31,339 nt of DNA from a virus (taxonomy: Duplodnaviria; Caudoviricetes), in IMG/VR virus record IMGVR_UViG_3300032329_000171, positions 1-31,339 of that record; one strand, written 5' to 3'. Positions within the stretch are counted from its first letter, which is position 1; every line of letters begins with the position of its first letter. Shown here piece by piece: positions 794 to 15,971 of this stretch. A model generated the notes under the pieces. The model had not been told where the DNA came from, searched no databases, and worked only from the letters and a program-made list of their open reading frames with translations. A program made the translations under genes and the position numbers.

Positions 794-946
794 ATGAAAA
801 TTGAACTTACCCGCGCTGAAGTCGAGCGCATCATCTTGGATTACGCTAACGCGCTGGTCCCGGGCTACGGCTTTGACGACGTTCGCGGCGGCTATAGCTT
901 TATCCCAACCACCGTTACCGTGGAGAAAAAAGATGCAGCACAGTAA
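794..946 (+). CDS. Small hypothetical protein (50 aa, not in ORF track)
   Basis: GGAG RBS at 785-788, then MKIELTRAEVERIILDYANALVPGYGFDDVRGGYSFIPTTVTVEKKDAAQ*, overlapping the next start. Confidence 0.7.
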   Translation: MKIELTRAEVERIILDYANALVPGYGFDDVRGGYSFIPTTVTVEKKDAAQ

Positions 947-2045
947 TATCGTCGGCGGCTCGACCGCCAAGCGCGTCATTAACTGCCCCGGCTCTGTGGT
1001 GCTGGTGCAAAAAATGCCGCCCAAGCCATCCAGCGAACACGCAGACCGTGGCACTTTGCTGCACAACGCCATCAGCGCCATCTTGGAAGACATGAACGTC
1101 GATGTGATCGGCATGAAGTACGAAGACCAAGTGCTGACGCAAGACCTGTACGATGAGAAGATCGTTTCAGCTTTAGCTCTACTAGATGAAGTAGACCCAG
1201 ACAAGGAGATGGTTTATGAAGTGGAGACGCGTGTTGGGTTTGGCGATCTTCTACCAGGTGTGTTTGGTAGTACTGACCTTGTTGGTCGCATTGGAGATAA
1301 AGCTATTGTTCTTGATTGGAAATTTGGTGACGGGGTTGTTGTAGACGCCATTGAGAACGAGCAGCTAATGTTCTACGCAGCCGCCGCCATGCGGACAGAA
1401 GCAGCAGCATGGGCGTTTGATGGTACAACCGAGATCGAGTGCATCATCATCCAGCCGCCCATGATCCGTCGCTGGACAACCACCAAGGAACGCATCGCTC
1501 AGTTTGAGCGTGATTTGGTTAAGGCCGTCAAAGCCGCACAGTTACCTGACGCCAAGCTGGCCGCAGGCGAACACTGCCGCTGGTGCGCCGCCAAGCCTGT
1601 ATGCCCCAAGATGACCGGCGCAGTAGATCGCGCCCTGCAAACGCAACTCAAAGAAATAGATGTTGACACGCTGGGCAGATACCTGAAGAATGCAGAGCTT
1701 CTTGAGGACTGGATCAAAGACCTGCGTGGGCTGGCGACTCAGCTTTTAGAGGCGGCGACGCCTGTGCCTGGCTACAAGTTGGTTGCCAAGCGCGGGACAA
1801 GACAGTGGGTCAATGAAGACGAAGCAGTCATGGTGCTGGGCGTCGCAGGCATTGACCCTTACAAAGAACGTGAAGTGATTTCGCCAGCCGTGGCTGAGAA
1901 ATTACTCAAAAAGAGCAAGACGGCATTGCCACCCGAACTCGTGGTGACAGTATCGTCGGGCACAACACTGGCAAGCATGGATGACCCGCGCCCAGCAGTG
2001 TTGCAGTTGAGTGGCCTGACGGCTGCTCTTTCTAAACTTCAGTGA
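933..2045 (+). CDS. DUF2800 / Cas4-like PD-(D/E)xK exonuclease
   Basis: N-terminal HS..GGSTAKRVINCPGS, GTLLH, FGSTD, DWKFG, QLMFYA and C-terminal CRWC...C cysteine cluster. Start moved to ATG 933 (GGAG upstream). Confidence 0.85.
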   Translation: MQHSNIVGGSTAKRVINCPGSVVLVQKMPPKPSSEHADRGTLLHNAISAILEDMNVDVIGMKYEDQVLTQDLYDEKIVSALALLDEVDPDKEMVYEVETRVGFGDLLPGVFGSTDLVGRIGDKAIVLDWKFGDGVVVDAIENEQLMFYAAAAMRTEAAAWAFDGTTEIECIIIQPPMIRRWTTTKERIAQFERDLVKAVKAAQLPDAKLAAGEHCRWCAAKPVCPKMTGAVDRALQTQLKEIDVDTLGRYLKNAELLEDWIKDLRGLATQLLEAATPVPGYKLVAKRGTRQWVNEDEAVMVLGVAGIDPYKEREVISPAVAEKLLKKSKTALPPELVVTVSSGTTLASMDDPRPAVLQLSGLTAALSKLQ

Positions 2046-2054
2046 AAGCTAAAA

Positions 2055-2687
2055 ATGCAATTGACTACATTCTCCTCGGCAAATCTGCCAGCCGTTTCCA
2101 CCTTGTCCACTGCCCTGCGCGCGCTTGAAAAAGACGTCGGCCCAGCCGGTACTGTCATCCTGAAAATGGACAAGACAGGCCATTGGGTCTTTGGTGCAGA
2201 CCAGACCGAAGTGGAAGACGACGCTCTGTGGGCGATCAATCCTTTCTCGTTTATCCACGGCTTCATTGCTTGGGGTGACGGTGAAGTGTTGGGCGAAAAG
2301 ATGGTTGGTGTGTCTGAACCTTTGCCAGAACTCGACGGCGCTCCCTCGGGTGCCAAGCGTGGCTGGGAAACTCAGATCGGTATGTCACTCAAGTGCACCA
2401 CTGGTGAAGACAAGGACATGGAAGCGCGCTTTACGACCACTTCGGTGGGCGGCAAACGCGCAGTCCAGACCCTTGGCGTTGCCATTGCTACGCAAGTTGA
2501 GAAAGACCAATCCAAGCCTGTGCCAGTCGTGCGTCTGAAGAAAGACCACTACCAGCACAAGTCGTTCGGCAAAATCTACACGCCAGTGTTTGAGATTGTT
2601 GAGTGGGTTGGCCTTGATGGCGCATCTGATGAGCCTGAAGCAGCGCCCGAAGCGCCTGCCACTGGCCGTCGTCGCCGTAGCGTTTAA
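2055..2687 (+). CDS. Putative single-stranded DNA-binding protein
   Basis: Sits between the Cas4-like nuclease and PolA, the SSB slot in this module type. Beta-rich with aromatic residues (YQHKSFGKIYTPVFEIVEW) and a low-complexity tail. Function is inferred from position. Confidence 0.6.
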   Translation: MQLTTFSSANLPAVSTLSTALRALEKDVGPAGTVILKMDKTGHWVFGADQTEVEDDALWAINPFSFIHGFIAWGDGEVLGEKMVGVSEPLPELDGAPSGAKRGWETQIGMSLKCTTGEDKDMEARFTTTSVGGKRAVQTLGVAIATQVEKDQSKPVPVVRLKKDHYQHKSFGKIYTPVFEIVEWVGLDGASDEPEAAPEAPATGRRRRSV

Positions 2688-2692
2688 TTAAC

Positions 2693-2840
2693 GGGGGTGA
2701 AAGAATCTCGGTCTGGGAGTAGTGGTACCCTCCATTTAAGCCCGGTTGGGTTGTGTGTAGCTTAGTCTGGTTGAGCACCTCATATCGAGGAAGGCGTTGG
2801 TTCAAATCCAGCCGCACTTAGAGATTCAAGTAACCCCCAC
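2693..2840 (+). ncRNA. Structured RNA element 1: long closing stem with a loop-E-like motif enclosing two hairpins and a tRNA-like domain
   Basis: GGGGGT/ACCCCC and GAATCTC/GAGATTC stems separated by a GAA/AGTA internal loop. Inner hairpins GGAG/CTCC and AGCCC/GGGTT. tRNA-like fold at 2753-2817. Confidence 0.65.
2753..2817 (+). other. tRNA-like domain with truncated anticodon arm (pseudo-tRNA)
   Basis: TAGCTTAGTCTGGTTGAGCA D-arm, GTTGG-TTCAAAT-CCAGC T-arm and GTGTG/CGCAC partial acceptor stem. The anticodon arm is only CCTC-ATATC-GAGG and there is no CCA. Confidence 0.7.
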
Positions 2841-2850
2841 CTTTTTAATC

Positions 2851-2942
2851 GGGGGCTGTTAAGCCAGCGTTCGAGGATGGTGACTTGCGGATTTTCTGGC
2901 TTTCTCCCGCAACTTGTCGAAACCCAAATCGAAGCCCCCACC
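2851..2942 (+). ncRNA. Structured RNA element 2 with predicted pseudoknot, directly upstream of DNA polymerase
   Basis: Nested pairings GGGGGCT/AGCCCCC, TTCGA/TCGAA, GAC/GTC and TTGCGG/CCGCAA. AAGCCAG (2861-2867) is complementary to loop CTGGCTT (2896-2902). Confidence 0.65.
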
Positions 2943-2958: not shown

Positions 2959-4875
2959 ATGGTTTATATCGACTTTGAGACGCGCAGCCGATGCGATCTC
3001 AAGAGCAAAGGCGTTTACAACTACGCGCAAGACTTAAGCACTGAAGTTCTGTGCATGTCTTACGCCTTCGACGATGACGAGGTGCAGACATGGACGTCTG
3101 GCCCGTTGCCTGACTTCACAGGCCACATGATCTACGCCCACAACGCCGCCTTTGAGCGGCTGATCTTTTGGTACGTGCTGCAACAGAACTACCCCCTTGA
3201 GTCGTTCTACTGCACGGCCACCCAAGCCCGCGCTAATTGCGCGCCTGGTGGCCTTGAGGACGTGGGGCGCTTCGCTGGCGCGGTCATGAAGAAAGACCAT
3301 CGCGGCTCACAACTGATCCGGCTGCTCTCTATCCCAAAGGCCGACGGTACGTTCAACAACGACCCGACCCTGATGGCCGAGATGATTGCTTACTGCGAAC
3401 AGGACGTGCGTGCCATGCGTGCGGTCAGCAAGGCCATGCGGCCCCTATCCGCTGACGAACTGCTCGACTACCACGTCAACGAACGCATTAACGACCGTGG
3501 CCTGATGGTTGACGTGCCCCTGTGTCAAGCCGCCGTCAAGTACGCTGGCGCTGAGATGGACGAGATTCAAAAGATCGTCGCCGAAGTGACAGACGGTCAG
3601 ATCACGTCGGTGCGCTCACCCAAGATGCGCGAGTGGGTGCTGGAGCGTGTCGGGCCAGAGGCCAAGAAGCTGATGTGGACTGGCGAGAAATATTCCATTG
3701 ATAAAACTGTGCGGGCGAATCTGCTTGCGATGGAGAACCATGATGAAGTTCCGCCCGATGTGGCCGAAGTTATACAGTGCGCCGATGACCTCTGGGCGTC
3801 GTCGGTTGCGAAGTTCAGCCGCCTTGCGAGTTTGGCAGATGAGGAAGATGCCCGAGTTAGAGGTGCCTTTGTTTTTGCTGGAGGCAGTGCAACAGGGCGC
3901 GCTTCGTCGTACGGCGCTCAAGTCCATAATCTCCCGCGTAAAAGCGCTCAAGACCCCGAAGCCGTCCGCACAGCAATGGTTCGAGGCCATGAAATCGTGC
4001 CACGATTCGAAAAACGCATTACAGACGTTTTGAAGAAAATGCTACGCCCTGCCATCGTGGCAGCGCCTGGTAATGTCCTGATCGCCTACGACTGGTCGGC
4101 CATCGAGGGGCGCGTGCATCCGTGGCTGTCCAACTGCCCAGCAGGCGAGGCCAAGCTGGATGTGTTCCGCTCGGGCCTTGATCCGTACAAAGTCAACGCA
4201 ACCGCGACCTTTCGCGTGGCTTACGACGATGTGACGGGCGACCAGCGCCAAGTGGGCAAGGTGCAGGAACTCGCGCTTGGCTTTCTAGGCGGCGCAGGAG
4301 CGTTCGAAGTGTTCGGGCGTGCCTACGGTATCCACCTGTCCGCTGGCGAGGTTGCGCGGGCTGTGGAGGGCTGGCGCAGGGCTAATCCGTGGGCTATGCA
4401 GCACGGCCGCCGCTTAGAAGATGCGTACCTGCGCGCCATGAGAAACAAAGGGCATGAATTTGCTGCGGGTCGTGTTGTGTACTTGTTCGATGGTCAGACC
4501 CTCTGGTACAGTCTGCCTTCCGGCCGGGTGCTTTGCTACCCTAACGCCAAGTTTGACGAAGAAGGTAACGTGACGTACACCAAAGCAGCTTGGAAGCCTG
4601 CCGCCGACGCGACAGAATGGCCCCGCGCCCGTCTGTGGCGTGGCTTGGCTTGCGAGAACGTCACCCAAGCCGCCGCGCACGACATCTTGCGTCATAGCCT
4701 ACGCGCCCTTGATGGCGTGATCGCTCACGTCCATGATGAGATCGTCGTCGAGTGCGCCGAATCAGACGCTGAAGCCATATCCGCACACATCCATCAAGTC
4801 ATGTGCACACCGCCCGCATGGGCCGAGGGTTTACCCTTGGCCGCTGAAGGTGTGACAACGAGGCGTTATAGCTAA
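2959..4875 (+). CDS. polA: Phage family A DNA polymerase with 3'-5' exonuclease domain
   Basis: ExoI YIDFETRS, ExoII AHNAAFE, TGRASS, motif A YDWSAIEGR, motif B RQVGKVQELALGF and motif C HVHDEIVVE. Confidence 0.95.
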   Translation: MVYIDFETRSRCDLKSKGVYNYAQDLSTEVLCMSYAFDDDEVQTWTSGPLPDFTGHMIYAHNAAFERLIFWYVLQQNYPLESFYCTATQARANCAPGGLEDVGRFAGAVMKKDHRGSQLIRLLSIPKADGTFNNDPTLMAEMIAYCEQDVRAMRAVSKAMRPLSADELLDYHVNERINDRGLMVDVPLCQAAVKYAGAEMDEIQKIVAEVTDGQITSVRSPKMREWVLERVGPEAKKLMWTGEKYSIDKTVRANLLAMENHDEVPPDVAEVIQCADDLWASSVAKFSRLASLADEEDARVRGAFVFAGGSATGRASSYGAQVHNLPRKSAQDPEAVRTAMVRGHEIVPRFEKRITDVLKKMLRPAIVAAPGNVLIAYDWSAIEGRVHPWLSNCPAGEAKLDVFRSGLDPYKVNATATFRVAYDDVTGDQRQVGKVQELALGFLGGAGAFEVFGRAYGIHLSAGEVARAVEGWRRANPWAMQHGRRLEDAYLRAMRNKGHEFAAGRVVYLFDGQTLWYSLPSGRVLCYPNAKFDEEGNVTYTKAAWKPAADATEWPRARLWRGLACENVTQAAAHDILRHSLRALDGVIAHVHDEIVVECAESDAEAISAHIHQVMCTPPAWAEGLPLAAEGVTTRRYS

Positions 4876-13442: not shown

Positions 13443-15612
13443 TCCAACCGGAATAGTCGCCGCAGCTAACGTAGCTGCCGGTGGCAAACCACTAAAAAGC
13501 GACTCAGATATTCTGACCGTTGCGCGTGCCCGTCTGGATATGGCCGTATCGGCGCTGGCCGAGTCCCGTGAGGATGAGATCGACGACTTGCGTTTCTACG
13601 CTGGCTCGCCCGACAACCACTGGCAGTGGCCTGCTGACGTACTGGCTACCCGTGGCGCGGTTCAAGGGCAGACCATCAACGCCCGTCCAACGCTGACCAT
13701 CAACAAACTGCCCCAACATGTGCGCCAAGTCACCAACGACATGCGCCAAAATCGCCCTGGGGCCAAGGTCATCCCTGTGGATGACAACGCCGACATCGAA
13801 GTGGCAGACATTTTCAACGGCATGATTCGGCACATCGAGTACATCTCGGACGCTGATGTGGCCTATGACACCGCCTGCGAGAATCAGGTGTCCTACGGTG
13901 AGGGTTACATCACCCTGATGACCGAGTATTGCGACGAAAACACGTTCGATCAGGACATCAAGATTGGCCGTGTGCGTAACAGCTTCTCGGTCTACATGGA
14001 CCCACTGATTCAAGACCCCACTGGCGCGGATGCCAAGTGGTGTTTTATCACCGAAGACCTGACAAAAGCCGAATACGAGCGCCAGTACCCCGATGCGGCG
14101 CCTATTTCGACCTTGCAGTCGCTTGGCGTGGGCGATCAGTCGATCAGCAACTGGCTGAATGAAGACACCGTGCGTATTGCAGGGTACTATTACATCGACT
14201 ACGACAAAGCCACCCTGAATTTGTACCCTGGCAATCAAACCGCGTTTGAAAGCACGCCGGAAGACAAGGCTTTACGGGCGATGTTTGGCAAACCCAAGCG
14301 CAATCGGGTGTCCGAGCGCCCTCGGGTGAAGTATTGCAAGATCAACGGCTACGAAATTCTTGAAGAAAAAGAGTGGGCTGGCAAGTGGATTCCCGTTATT
14401 CGTGTTGTTGGCAACGAATTTGAGGTCGATGGCCGTTTGTACGTGTCAGGCTTGGTGCGTAATGCCAAAGATGCCCAGCGCATGTACAACTATTGGGTGT
14501 CCCAAGAGGCCGAAATGCTGGCCTTGGCCCCCAAAGCGCCGTTTATCGGCTACGGCGGTCAGTTTGAAGGCTACGAAGACAAATGGAAGACCGCTAACAC
14601 AAACAATTGGCCCTATTTAGAGGTCAATCCAGACGTTACAGACGGTTCTGGCTCCATCCTGCCACTACCCCAGCGTGCCCAGCCTCCGATGGCCTCTACG
14701 GGCCTTCTACAGGCCAAGGCAGGCGCGTCTGAAGACATCAAATCCACCACAGGCCAGTACAACGCCAGTTTGGGCATGGGTTCCAACGAGCGTTCGGGCA
14801 AAGCCATCCTTGCGCGTCAGCGTGAGGGCGATGTGGGCACCTATCACTATGGTGACAACCTGACCCGTGCTGTGCGCCATGTGGCCCGTCAACTGGTGGA
14901 CCTGATTCCTAAAATTTACGACACTCAGCGCATCGCCCGAATCATTGGTGAAGACGGCGAAACCAAGATGGTCAAGATCAACCCCGATCAGCCCGAGCCA
15001 GTCAACAAAATCGTTGACCAGCAAGGCATCGTGATTGAGAAAATCTACAACCCAGGCGTCGGCAAGTACGATGTTGTGGCGACCACCGGCCCAGGCTACG
15101 CGACCAAGCGTCAAGCGGCACTTGAAGCAATGGCACAACTGTTGCAGGGTAATCCCCAGCTGTGGTCTGTGGCCGGTGACTTGTTTGTCAAGAACATGGA
15201 CTGGCCCGGTGCTCAAGAAATGGCAAAGCGGTTCCAGAAAACCATTGATCCTAAGCTCTTGTCAGATGCTAACGAAGACCCAGCGTTGCAGGCTGCTCAA
15301 ATGCAGATGCAGGCAATGGGTCAAGAGATGGAGCAGATGCATCAGATGTTGCAAAACGTGGGCAAATCCATCGAAATGCAAGACATGGAGCGCAAGGACT
15401 TTGAAGCTCAGGTCAAGGCATACGAGGCCGAAACCAAGCGTTTGGCTCAAGTGCAGGCATCTATGTCGCCAGAGCAGATTCAAGACATTGTTATGGGCAC
15501 GGTCCACGGCATGATTACCTCTGGCGATCTGGTTGGCGAGATGCCTGGCCGTGAACAGAATGAGATGATGCCCGAAAGCGCTGAATACGCACCACAAGGA
15601 ATGCCACAATGA
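13435..15612 (+). CDS. Portal protein, P22-like
   Basis: 725 aa, with QW, RPTLTINKL, GLVRNAKDAQRMYNYW, SGKAILARQ and GKYDV motifs plus a Q/M-rich C-terminal coiled coil. Confidence 0.92.
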   Translation: MADPTGIVAAANVAAGGKPLKSDSDILTVARARLDMAVSALAESREDEIDDLRFYAGSPDNHWQWPADVLATRGAVQGQTINARPTLTINKLPQHVRQVTNDMRQNRPGAKVIPVDDNADIEVADIFNGMIRHIEYISDADVAYDTACENQVSYGEGYITLMTEYCDENTFDQDIKIGRVRNSFSVYMDPLIQDPTGADAKWCFITEDLTKAEYERQYPDAAPISTLQSLGVGDQSISNWLNEDTVRIAGYYYIDYDKATLNLYPGNQTAFESTPEDKALRAMFGKPKRNRVSERPRVKYCKINGYEILEEKEWAGKWIPVIRVVGNEFEVDGRLYVSGLVRNAKDAQRMYNYWVSQEAEMLALAPKAPFIGYGGQFEGYEDKWKTANTNNWPYLEVNPDVTDGSGSILPLPQRAQPPMASTGLLQAKAGASEDIKSTTGQYNASLGMGSNERSGKAILARQREGDVGTYHYGDNLTRAVRHVARQLVDLIPKIYDTQRIARIIGEDGETKMVKINPDQPEPVNKIVDQQGIVIEKIYNPGVGKYDVVATTGPGYATKRQAALEAMAQLLQGNPQLWSVAGDLFVKNMDWPGAQEMAKRFQKTIDPKLLSDANEDPALQAAQMQMQAMGQEMEQMHQMLQNVGKSIEMQDMERKDFEAQVKAYEAETKRLAQVQASMSPEQIQDIVMGTVHGMITSGDLVGEMPGREQNEMMPESAEYAPQGMPQ

Positions 15613-15971
15613 AAGCCGCTGATTTTTTAGGTTTGTTGTTTCTGGCTCGGGATGTCGCCCATTCCGTTCATTTGAACACCCGCAGTTTTTCCAAGCACAC
15701 GGCGCTCAACATTTTCTATGACCGCATCATTGATGCGGCTGATGACTTTGCTGAGTCCTATCAAGGCCGTCATGGTTTAATTGGCCCGATTACTTTGCAT
15801 TCGGCCAAGAAAACGGCTAACATTATCGAATTCTTGGAAGACTCACTCGCACAGATTGAAGCTGCTAGGTACGATGTGGTTGACCGGACCGATATGTCGT
15901 TGCAACAGTTGATTGACAACATCATTGAAATTTATCTCCGCACGCTGTACAAGTTAAAATTCTTGGCATAA
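15609..15971 (+). CDS. Ferritin/Dps-like four-helix protein (DUF5856-like)
   Basis: HSVHLNTRSFSKHTAL..FYD...DDFAESYQG and terminal TLYKLKFL motifs. Confidence 0.7.
   Translation: MKAADFLGLLFLARDVAHSVHLNTRSFSKHTALNIFYDRIIDAADDFAESYQGRHGLIGPITLHSAKKTANIIEFLEDSLAQIEAARYDVVDRTDMSLQQLIDNIIEIYLRTLYKLKFLA

Follow-up and report, generated by a model that had tools for sequence, protein, structure and literature searches.

The locus and its structured element

The window, by which we mean the whole 31,339-nucleotide stretch of DNA that was analysed, is a phage record of 31 kb that encodes P22-like portal and coat proteins and includes a replication block. Directly 3' of the portal gene lies a DUF5856 gene (15609-15971). 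The replication block is ordered as a DUF2800 exonuclease, a 210-residue protein that is likely a single-stranded-DNA-binding protein (SSB), a family A DNA polymerase and a primase. The element under study is located between the putative SSB gene and the polymerase gene, in a slot that is defined by the stop codon of the former. The features of the region are:

801..2045 (+): DUF2800 / Cas4-like exonuclease gene (Pfam PF10926, E=1e-54; phrog_69)
2055..2687 (+): upstream gene, 210 aa, putative SSB (phrog_9528)
2691..2846 (+): inserted module, an outer stem around a hairpin and a degenerate tRNA; separate from the RNA under study
2751..2820 (+): degenerate tRNA-like sequence (Rfam RF00005, 35.5 bits); short anticodon arm, no CCA
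2851-2857/2933-2939 (+): helix P1, 7 bp; two-sided changes in 7/7 pairs; 94.3% paired
2858..2870 (+): 13-nt 5' bulge with conserved GUY, pseudoknot strand (2861-2867) and conserved C2868
2861-2867/2896-2902 (+): bulge-loop pseudoknot, 7 bp, all Watson-Crick
2871-2874/2929-2932 (+): helix P2, 4 bp; 98.4% paired; 3/4 pairs covary
2875..2881 (+): GGAU side of a conserved 4x4 internal loop, then the 5' strand of P3 (2879-2881)
2879-2881/2922-2924 (+): helix P3, 99.2% paired; missed by the sequence-only reading
2882-2884/2916-2918 (+): helix P4, GAC/GTC; weak, 68.4% paired across 80 homologs
2885-2890/2907-2912 (+): helix P5, 96.9% paired; 6/6 pairs covary
2891..2906 (+): apical loop, 16 nt, with U-run (2892-2895), pseudoknot strand (2896-2902) and conserved UC
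2907..2924 (+): 3' strands of P5, P4 and P3 with two 3-nt bulges
2925..2939 (+): CAAA side of the internal loop, then the 3' strands of P2 and P1
2940..2943 (+): ACC tail 3' of P1, at the place of the RCC tail of phage copies and of the At1/Ti2 ends
2959..4875 (+): family A DNA polymerase gene (PF00476, phrog_17); not a required partner of the RNA

The library label of phrog_9528 for the product of 2055..2687 is 'nucleotidyltransferase'. We infer an SSB because the gene is placed between exonuclease and polymerase, and because gp2.5-like/SSB families are found upstream of other copies of the element. P1 and P2 are contiguous on the 3' strand and separated by the 13-nt bulge on the 5' strand. 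The polymerase ATG (2959) is 19 nt past P1, and the gap between P1 and 2959 holds no Shine-Dalgarno-like run, as an earlier interpretation made from the letters of this DNA (the sequence-only reading) had noted. No promoter-like site was found just before the element in the window, which is therefore likely read through from upstream.

The inserted module at 2691-2846 is missing in locus L001, though the upstream protein there is 100% identical, and three sequencing runs contain a contig joint 2690-2847, i.e. without the module. Its outer stem is predicted to fold with a GAAA/AAGUA internal loop and an ACC tail. ARAGORN reported no tRNA at 2751..2820, and an exact 27-nt pattern found no second copy of the degenerate tRNA in viral contigs. 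At the Rfam cut-offs, the window gave the tRNA only, 18 relative loci gave nothing, and 40 viral loci gave three tRNAs and one Betaproteobacteria-1 RNA. A Betaproteobacteria-1 RNA lies on the minus strand at L141:1170-1287, about 170 nt downstream of the phage copy.

Comparative evidence for a pseudoknotted fold

The sequence-only reading had described four stems (GGGGGCT/AGCCCCC, TTCGA/TCGAA, GAC/GTC and TTGCGG/CCGCAA) and a 7-bp pseudoknot between AAGCCAG in the 5' bulge and CTGGCTT in the apical loop. All four stems are present where it had placed them, but two need correction. The TTCGA/TCGAA stem is real, but its A2933 is also used by P1, and covariation gives this residue to P1, so that P2 has 4 bp. 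The GAC/GTC stem is present but weak in the homologs.

Folding of the single sequence was uninformative. The nested fold reaches -27.0 kcal/mol versus -28.9 for the minimum free energy (MFE) structure, with -9.3 for the pseudoknot duplex alone, and the MFE is no better than chance (z = -0.39; 67 of 200 shuffles equally good). Single-sequence folding also nests bulge and loop as a stem. Because the single sequence folds no better than shuffles, homologs were collected.

A search pattern with the pseudoknot sequence of the window matches an estimated 380 viral stretches, and a pattern that leaves the bulge unspecified matches, by estimate, about 1000 viral (IMG/VR) stretches. The bulge-free scan of 120 loci gave 112 distinct matches, 103 of them with GUY at a fixed offset. 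All seven pseudoknot bases pair in 101 of these 103 viral copies if G-U is allowed (91 are fully Watson-Crick), versus 23.6 +/- 3.6 (maximum 37) after shuffling of the bulges, with the best loop register taken in both cases and with related copies that are not independent of each other. Nineteen different bulge 7-mers occur. The sequence-only reading was correct about the pseudoknotted fold, which is strongly conserved.

We then aligned 80 of 132 cluster representatives, excluding At1-type copies (see below), apparent chance matches and copies that are truncated or contain long inserts. In this alignment, 94.6% of cells pair, versus 34-48% in slid controls, two-sided changes are seen in 26 of 30 pairs, and the column pairs with the highest mutual information are the predicted helices. 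Since the aligned copies had been pre-filtered for six or more of the seven pseudoknot pairs, it is the bulge-free shuffle test that judges the pseudoknot fairly. In helix columns, G-U outnumbers A-C by 85 to 11, and the plus-strand RNA is therefore the folded molecule. Together, these data confirm that the element is a real, pseudoknotted RNA fold that is conserved across viral copies and occurs in many freshwater phages.

Kinship with the At1 and Ti2 RNAs

Rfam gave a weak full-length match of the window element to RF02496, Atu_At1 (19 bits, E=1.3), which does not reach the gathering cut-off of 60 bits. An own-genome search was negative as well. At1 is an sRNA of Agrobacterium fabrum C58 (Wilms et al. 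2012, PMC3384568). Its gene lies on the plasmid pAt, upstream of ligD, and its bulge and loop are complementary to each other as in the window element. A genome-wide pattern found about 130 stretches, mostly in Rhizobiales, and compact cellular copies in Polynucleobacter, Polaromonas, Undibacterium and Zwartia. The structure of the phage copies is also borne out by covariation in 40 At1-type copies (97.3% of cells paired), whose pseudoknot is 100% paired, with double changes in two of the seven pairs.

We also built a model solely from the 40 Rhizobiales At1-type RNAs. With its E-values roughly calibrated, the window element is the top match in the window (25 bits, E=1e-4; next match 14.2 bits). 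The same model recovered all 26 of the compact viral copies searched at E<=1, of which 24 reached E<0.01, and none of four chance pattern matches. Matches between models of compact and At1-type RNAs are reciprocal, and five viral contigs contain RNAs of the At1 scaffold that exceed the Rfam cut-off. The window element shares the P1-bulge-P2-GGAUG loop-P3-P5 architecture with the 7-bp bulge-loop pseudoknot. Invariant bases common to both groups, and present in the window, are G10 U11 Y12 A13, C20, GGAUG, UUU, UUC and C..A, of which GGAUG, the U-run and CYRAAU are partly fixed by the search patterns and GUY is not. GGAUG, with this reservation, is found in 80/80 compact and 40/40 At1-type copies.

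By these model and motif comparisons, the window element is shown to be a homolog of the At1-type RNAs. We classify it as a compact variant of a wider At1/Ti2 class, placed outside RF02496 because it scores below the cut-off and has no side hairpin. It agrees with Atu_At1 in the order of helices, the GUY-A bulge, the 7-bp pairing of this bulge to a U-flanked apical loop and the GGAUG/CYNA internal loop. Unlike Atu_At1, it is about 20 nt shorter and is without the GCC-loop-GGC side hairpin between P5 and P3, which is conserved in the 40 At1-type copies; its P2 has 4 bp closed by A-U, its pseudoknot sequence is another one, and no promoter of its own was found. The extra hairpin of At1-type and some phage copies sits within the region that matches 2907..2924. 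In the Rfam consensus of At1, a small hairpin takes the place of the bulge and the pseudoknot is missing; the structure of At1 is hence corrected here.

BLAST of At1 matches the Ti plasmid at the coordinates of the sRNA Ti2. With 80.5 bits on RF02496, Ti2 is a member of the At1 family (L482:2996-3109 on the A. fabrum pTi). The link between Ti2 and At1 is not drawn in the part of PMC3384568 covered here. Ti2 resembles the window element in its pseudoknot and in an ACCC tail after P1, and differs by its plasmid location, a vir-box promoter and a longer side hairpin.

The internal loop of the window element (CCCAAA/GAUGG) and that of the Rfam At1 consensus (CCUAAC/GAUGG) resemble the 11-nt GAAA-tetraloop receptor (CCUAAG/UAUGG), as given in the part of PMC11381326 covered here. 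The window differs from it at 3 of 11 positions, and one position is free in At1-type copies. The likeness is a resemblance only, in an RNA without a conserved GNRA loop.

The At1-type class has already been catalogued as an orphan sRNA, and the compact phage form is what the present locus adds. What was an orphan Agrobacterium entry becomes a widespread class of structural RNA common to phages, plasmids and chromosomes, with a compact form that falls below the Rfam threshold, is very common in viral contigs and has strong pseudoknot covariation. The minimal form of 90 nt is suited to probing and structural work. We found no paper that describes the At1-type pseudoknot or the phage form. The motif strings are not in four supplements of PMC10690425, a study of viral candidate RNAs, whose larger files may hold the motif.

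Genomic context, expression and possible role

Among related phages with both flanking genes, 13 of 64 carry the element and 51 do not. Twelve of the 13 carriers have it 12-18 nt past the stop codon of the upstream gene, while the polymerase start is about 7-41 nt away in nine carriers and 140-603 nt away in the other four. In other relatives, the same slot holds plain hairpins (G+C, often followed by U-runs), other structured RNAs or nothing. In L016, L045, L047 and L064, it holds a second structured RNA without Rfam match, just past the upstream stop and also with GGAUG and a GAAA/AGUA-type loop, and in L010, L012, L071, L072 and L075 it holds additional hairpins whose internal loops are of the GAAA/AGUA type. 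Small RNA cassettes seem to be exchanged at this slot. Five loci (L013, L016, L024, L026 and L047) have in common, between it and the next gene, an element of roughly 110 nt that contains a long perfect inverted repeat and a U-tail and often lies 5' of an inserted ORF; the four loci scanned gave no Rfam match for it.

In other phages, we scanned 48 of 62 downstream ORFs, with near-duplicates dropped by eye. They comprise 7 polymerases, 10 exonucleases, 9 terminase subunits, 2 methyltransferases, 4 single others, 6 families of unknown function and 10 ORFs without match. Upstream genes in these phages include several SSB-type families, and bacterial relatives are placed among unrelated genes. 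The element is thus tied to no single neighbouring gene. It had no match in 50,697 deposited phage records. A pattern matched 15 of 201 Polynucleobacter genomes, of which 8 were judged real by eye. Model searches in one family (121 genomes) and one class (151 genomes) recovered the seed genomes only, in a weak search with 27-34 candidates scored per genome.

The relatives offer published evidence on expression. At1 measures 113 nt by sequencing and 115 nt by Northern blot and is highest at high cell density (PMC3384568). Ti2, also 113 nt, depends on VirA/VirG and is the most abundant transcript of the Ti plasmid; it shares a promoter with the downstream operon and accumulates separately, far above that mRNA (PMC3384568). 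Both RNAs give one Northern size that corresponds to the whole fold, in contrast to the two sizes tabulated there for RNAs that are processed (PMC3384568). Published coordinates, once mapped, put the ends of both RNAs 4 nt past P1, without a U-tract, and the start about 3 nt before P1 (mapped for Ti2). A different RNA-seq study possibly includes Ti2 in a 207-nt 5' UTR (PMC3738593). Deletion of Ti2 left tumour formation unchanged (PMC3384568, where the data are not shown); the strain retained At1, a paralog that may have masked an effect.

Of 101 Rhizobiaceae genomes, 36 (counting the seed genome) contain At1-type RNAs. A GGAAC/GAACY motif lies 45-62 nt upstream in 39 of 46 At1-type copies versus 9 of 184 phage copies, and in At1 itself GGAAC begins 36 nt before the mapped 5' end. 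We take this motif to be the EcfG/RpoE2 general-stress promoter. The regulon is described in PMC3616915, where the motif is not printed in the portion of text covered. In 16 of 199 viral copies, a TATAAT-like box precedes GUY by 20-21 nt (no more than 3 at any other offset), which would put the transcription start at P1. Among chromosomal betaproteobacterial copies, L350, L378, L392, L417, L435, L329, L367 and L425 share a TATGTGTG..GAAC motif and a TAAAGT-like box upstream, possibly a common promoter or regulator site.

The cellular set comprises 79 distinct copies, five doubtful or duplicate loci having been set aside beforehand. An opposite-strand ORF ends within 200 nt in 49 of the 79, Pfam-matched in 22; where a gene converges on the 3' end in this way, the copy has no gene to lead. 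Many Rhizobiales copies lie 20-60 nt before a same-strand gene, which fits a leader and speaks against a free RNA. In the 29 of 56 same-strand downstream ORFs that were scanned for bacterial copies, we found ligD, exonuclease III and pyridoxamine-oxidase-like, DUF892 and PRC-barrel genes.

At the 3' side, RCC follows P1 directly in 55 of 189 phage copies (no more than 2 at the next three offsets) and in 1 of 19 cellular compact copies, and a run of four U occurs within 8 nt after P1 in 58 of 189 phage copies. Because of these RCC tails, and because At1 and Ti2 end 4 nt past P1, the 3' end of a mature RNA is predicted near 2943. A dependence of RNase P on RCCA is reported (PMC12710915), and the tails hint at release of the phage RNA by this enzyme; plain slot hairpins end in RCC likewise, which counts against the hint. 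In sequencing runs, a 165-nt contig of depth 2.4 ends at 2944, although assembled contigs cannot show RNA ends.

The explanation that we favour, with moderate confidence, is that the compact relative of At1/Ti2, about 90 nt long, is a stable free RNA that is trimmed out of a longer transcript and acts in trans through its locked fold. Such an RNA would be transcribed behind the upstream gene (elsewhere from its own promoter or a strong operon), likely be trimmed to the base of P1, and be released as a stable molecule. From general pseudoknot geometry, the hairpin would bend at its bulged middle as at a hinge, the apical loop would dock on the 5' bulge, and the U-run would probably lie in the groove of invariant A-U pairs and form triples. 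P1 would seal both ends and stop 3' exonucleases, so that the RNA could outlast its parent mRNA. The invariant loop bases (GUYA, GGAUG/CYNA and UUUU..UC) may constitute a putative binding surface for a protein or a small molecule. Binding would matter once the cell or phage starts a strong programme, such as general stress, vir induction or phage replication. In the phage of the window, P1 probably also takes over the function of the plain slot hairpin of relatives. A discrete, full-length and abundant RNA ending just past P1 has been published for the relatives At1 and Ti2 only, and would by analogy be expected here; a stable decay product would give the same gel picture. The lack of a tumour phenotype on Ti2 deletion, the possible 5' UTR that includes Ti2 and the 51 of 64 related phages that have no copy also count against the favoured explanation. 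In a bolder version, which we regard as possible but tentative, At1/Ti2-type RNAs are a so far unrecognised class of fold-back pseudoknot RNAs that serve as a trans-acting sponge or decoy for one conserved cellular target, and phages have captured the minimal form. The putative target would be a stress metabolite or protein. Proteobacteria would use the RNA under general stress, Agrobacterium would do so while infecting plants, and with the 90-nt form freshwater phages, hundreds of them, would manipulate the same target as they replicate. The bulge-loop pairing could even form between molecules.

Several observations would also fit an element that acts in cis on mRNA stability or attenuation, its fold blocking nucleases or stalling read-through so that the upstream message is raised over the downstream one and the free RNA is a leftover. 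The plain G+C hairpins in the same slot of relatives, often with U-runs, are in line with such a barrier, as are the four-U runs close behind P1 of phage copies, the At1 and Ti2 ends 4 nt past P1, and the excess of Ti2 over its downstream mRNA. However, a plain hairpin suffices in most relatives, a barrier does not explain the invariant loop bases that phages have in common with Rhizobiales, At1 and Ti2 start about 3 nt before P1 with nothing upstream to protect, and a gene converges on 22 of 79 cellular copies; we therefore consider this explanation unlikely. The converging genes equally speak against a riboswitch-like aptamer that would control the downstream gene by sensing a metabolite or ion in the pseudoknot junction. 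Clustering of the invariant unpaired bases at the pseudoknot and internal loop, and the stress-type genes led by many bacterial copies (those listed above, from ligD to PRC-barrel), would suit an aptamer, yet downstream genes share no pathway, the aligned copies have no apparent conserved terminator or sequestered ribosome site, and no riboswitch family was found in Rfam at E<=10, which makes it improbable. A self-cleaving ribozyme of a new class, one of the suggestions of the sequence-only reading, is more doubtful still. Small ribozymes are common at intergenic phage sites beside replication and packaging genes, and the element matches such ribozymes in size, pseudoknot, invariant core and location. 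Nevertheless, no ribozyme family was found in Rfam at E<=10; hammerhead and twister, which the same reading could not match either, were absent at this threshold and at the cut-off, as were twister-sister, pistol, hatchet and HDV-like ribozymes, and none of the 40 viral loci scanned has a known ribozyme. At1 and Ti2 appear as single 113-115-nt RNAs that span the complete fold on Northern blots (PMC3384568) and end 4 nt past P1, which argues against self-cleavage.

Control of the polymerase level through a translational operator, as the sequence-only reading had also suggested, is largely refuted by the distribution of the element, and we give it very little credence. The start of the polymerase gene is indeed close in nine of 13 carrier relatives, but the element stays with the upstream stop in the other four, most relatives with both genes do without it, polymerases are a minority (7/48) of downstream genes in other phages, and in L012 and L064 the same A-rich leader comes after hairpins that are unrelated. 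No more probable is an antisense regulator of the C4/CI kind, in which bulge or loop would pair with phage mRNAs. C4 and CI are RNase P substrates, and the 7+4 bp stack of P1 and P2 followed by RCC in the phage copies with such tails looks like one. Against this, bulge and loop covary with each other, their longest complements elsewhere in the window (9-10 nt) are at chance level, and RCC is rare in cellular compact copies and also follows plain slot hairpins.

Two possible obligate partners of a free RNA were rejected. A bacterial Y RNA would have Ro60 as its partner, and TROVE was found in 2 of 101 Rhizobiaceae genomes, neither of them among the 36 with At1. Ku was encoded in 28 of 36 At1-positive versus 33 of 65 At1-negative genomes (hand count), leaving 8 At1-positive genomes without Ku. 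As a separate observation, the RNA of L114 is located just 5' of a gene that PHROGs names starvation-inducible.
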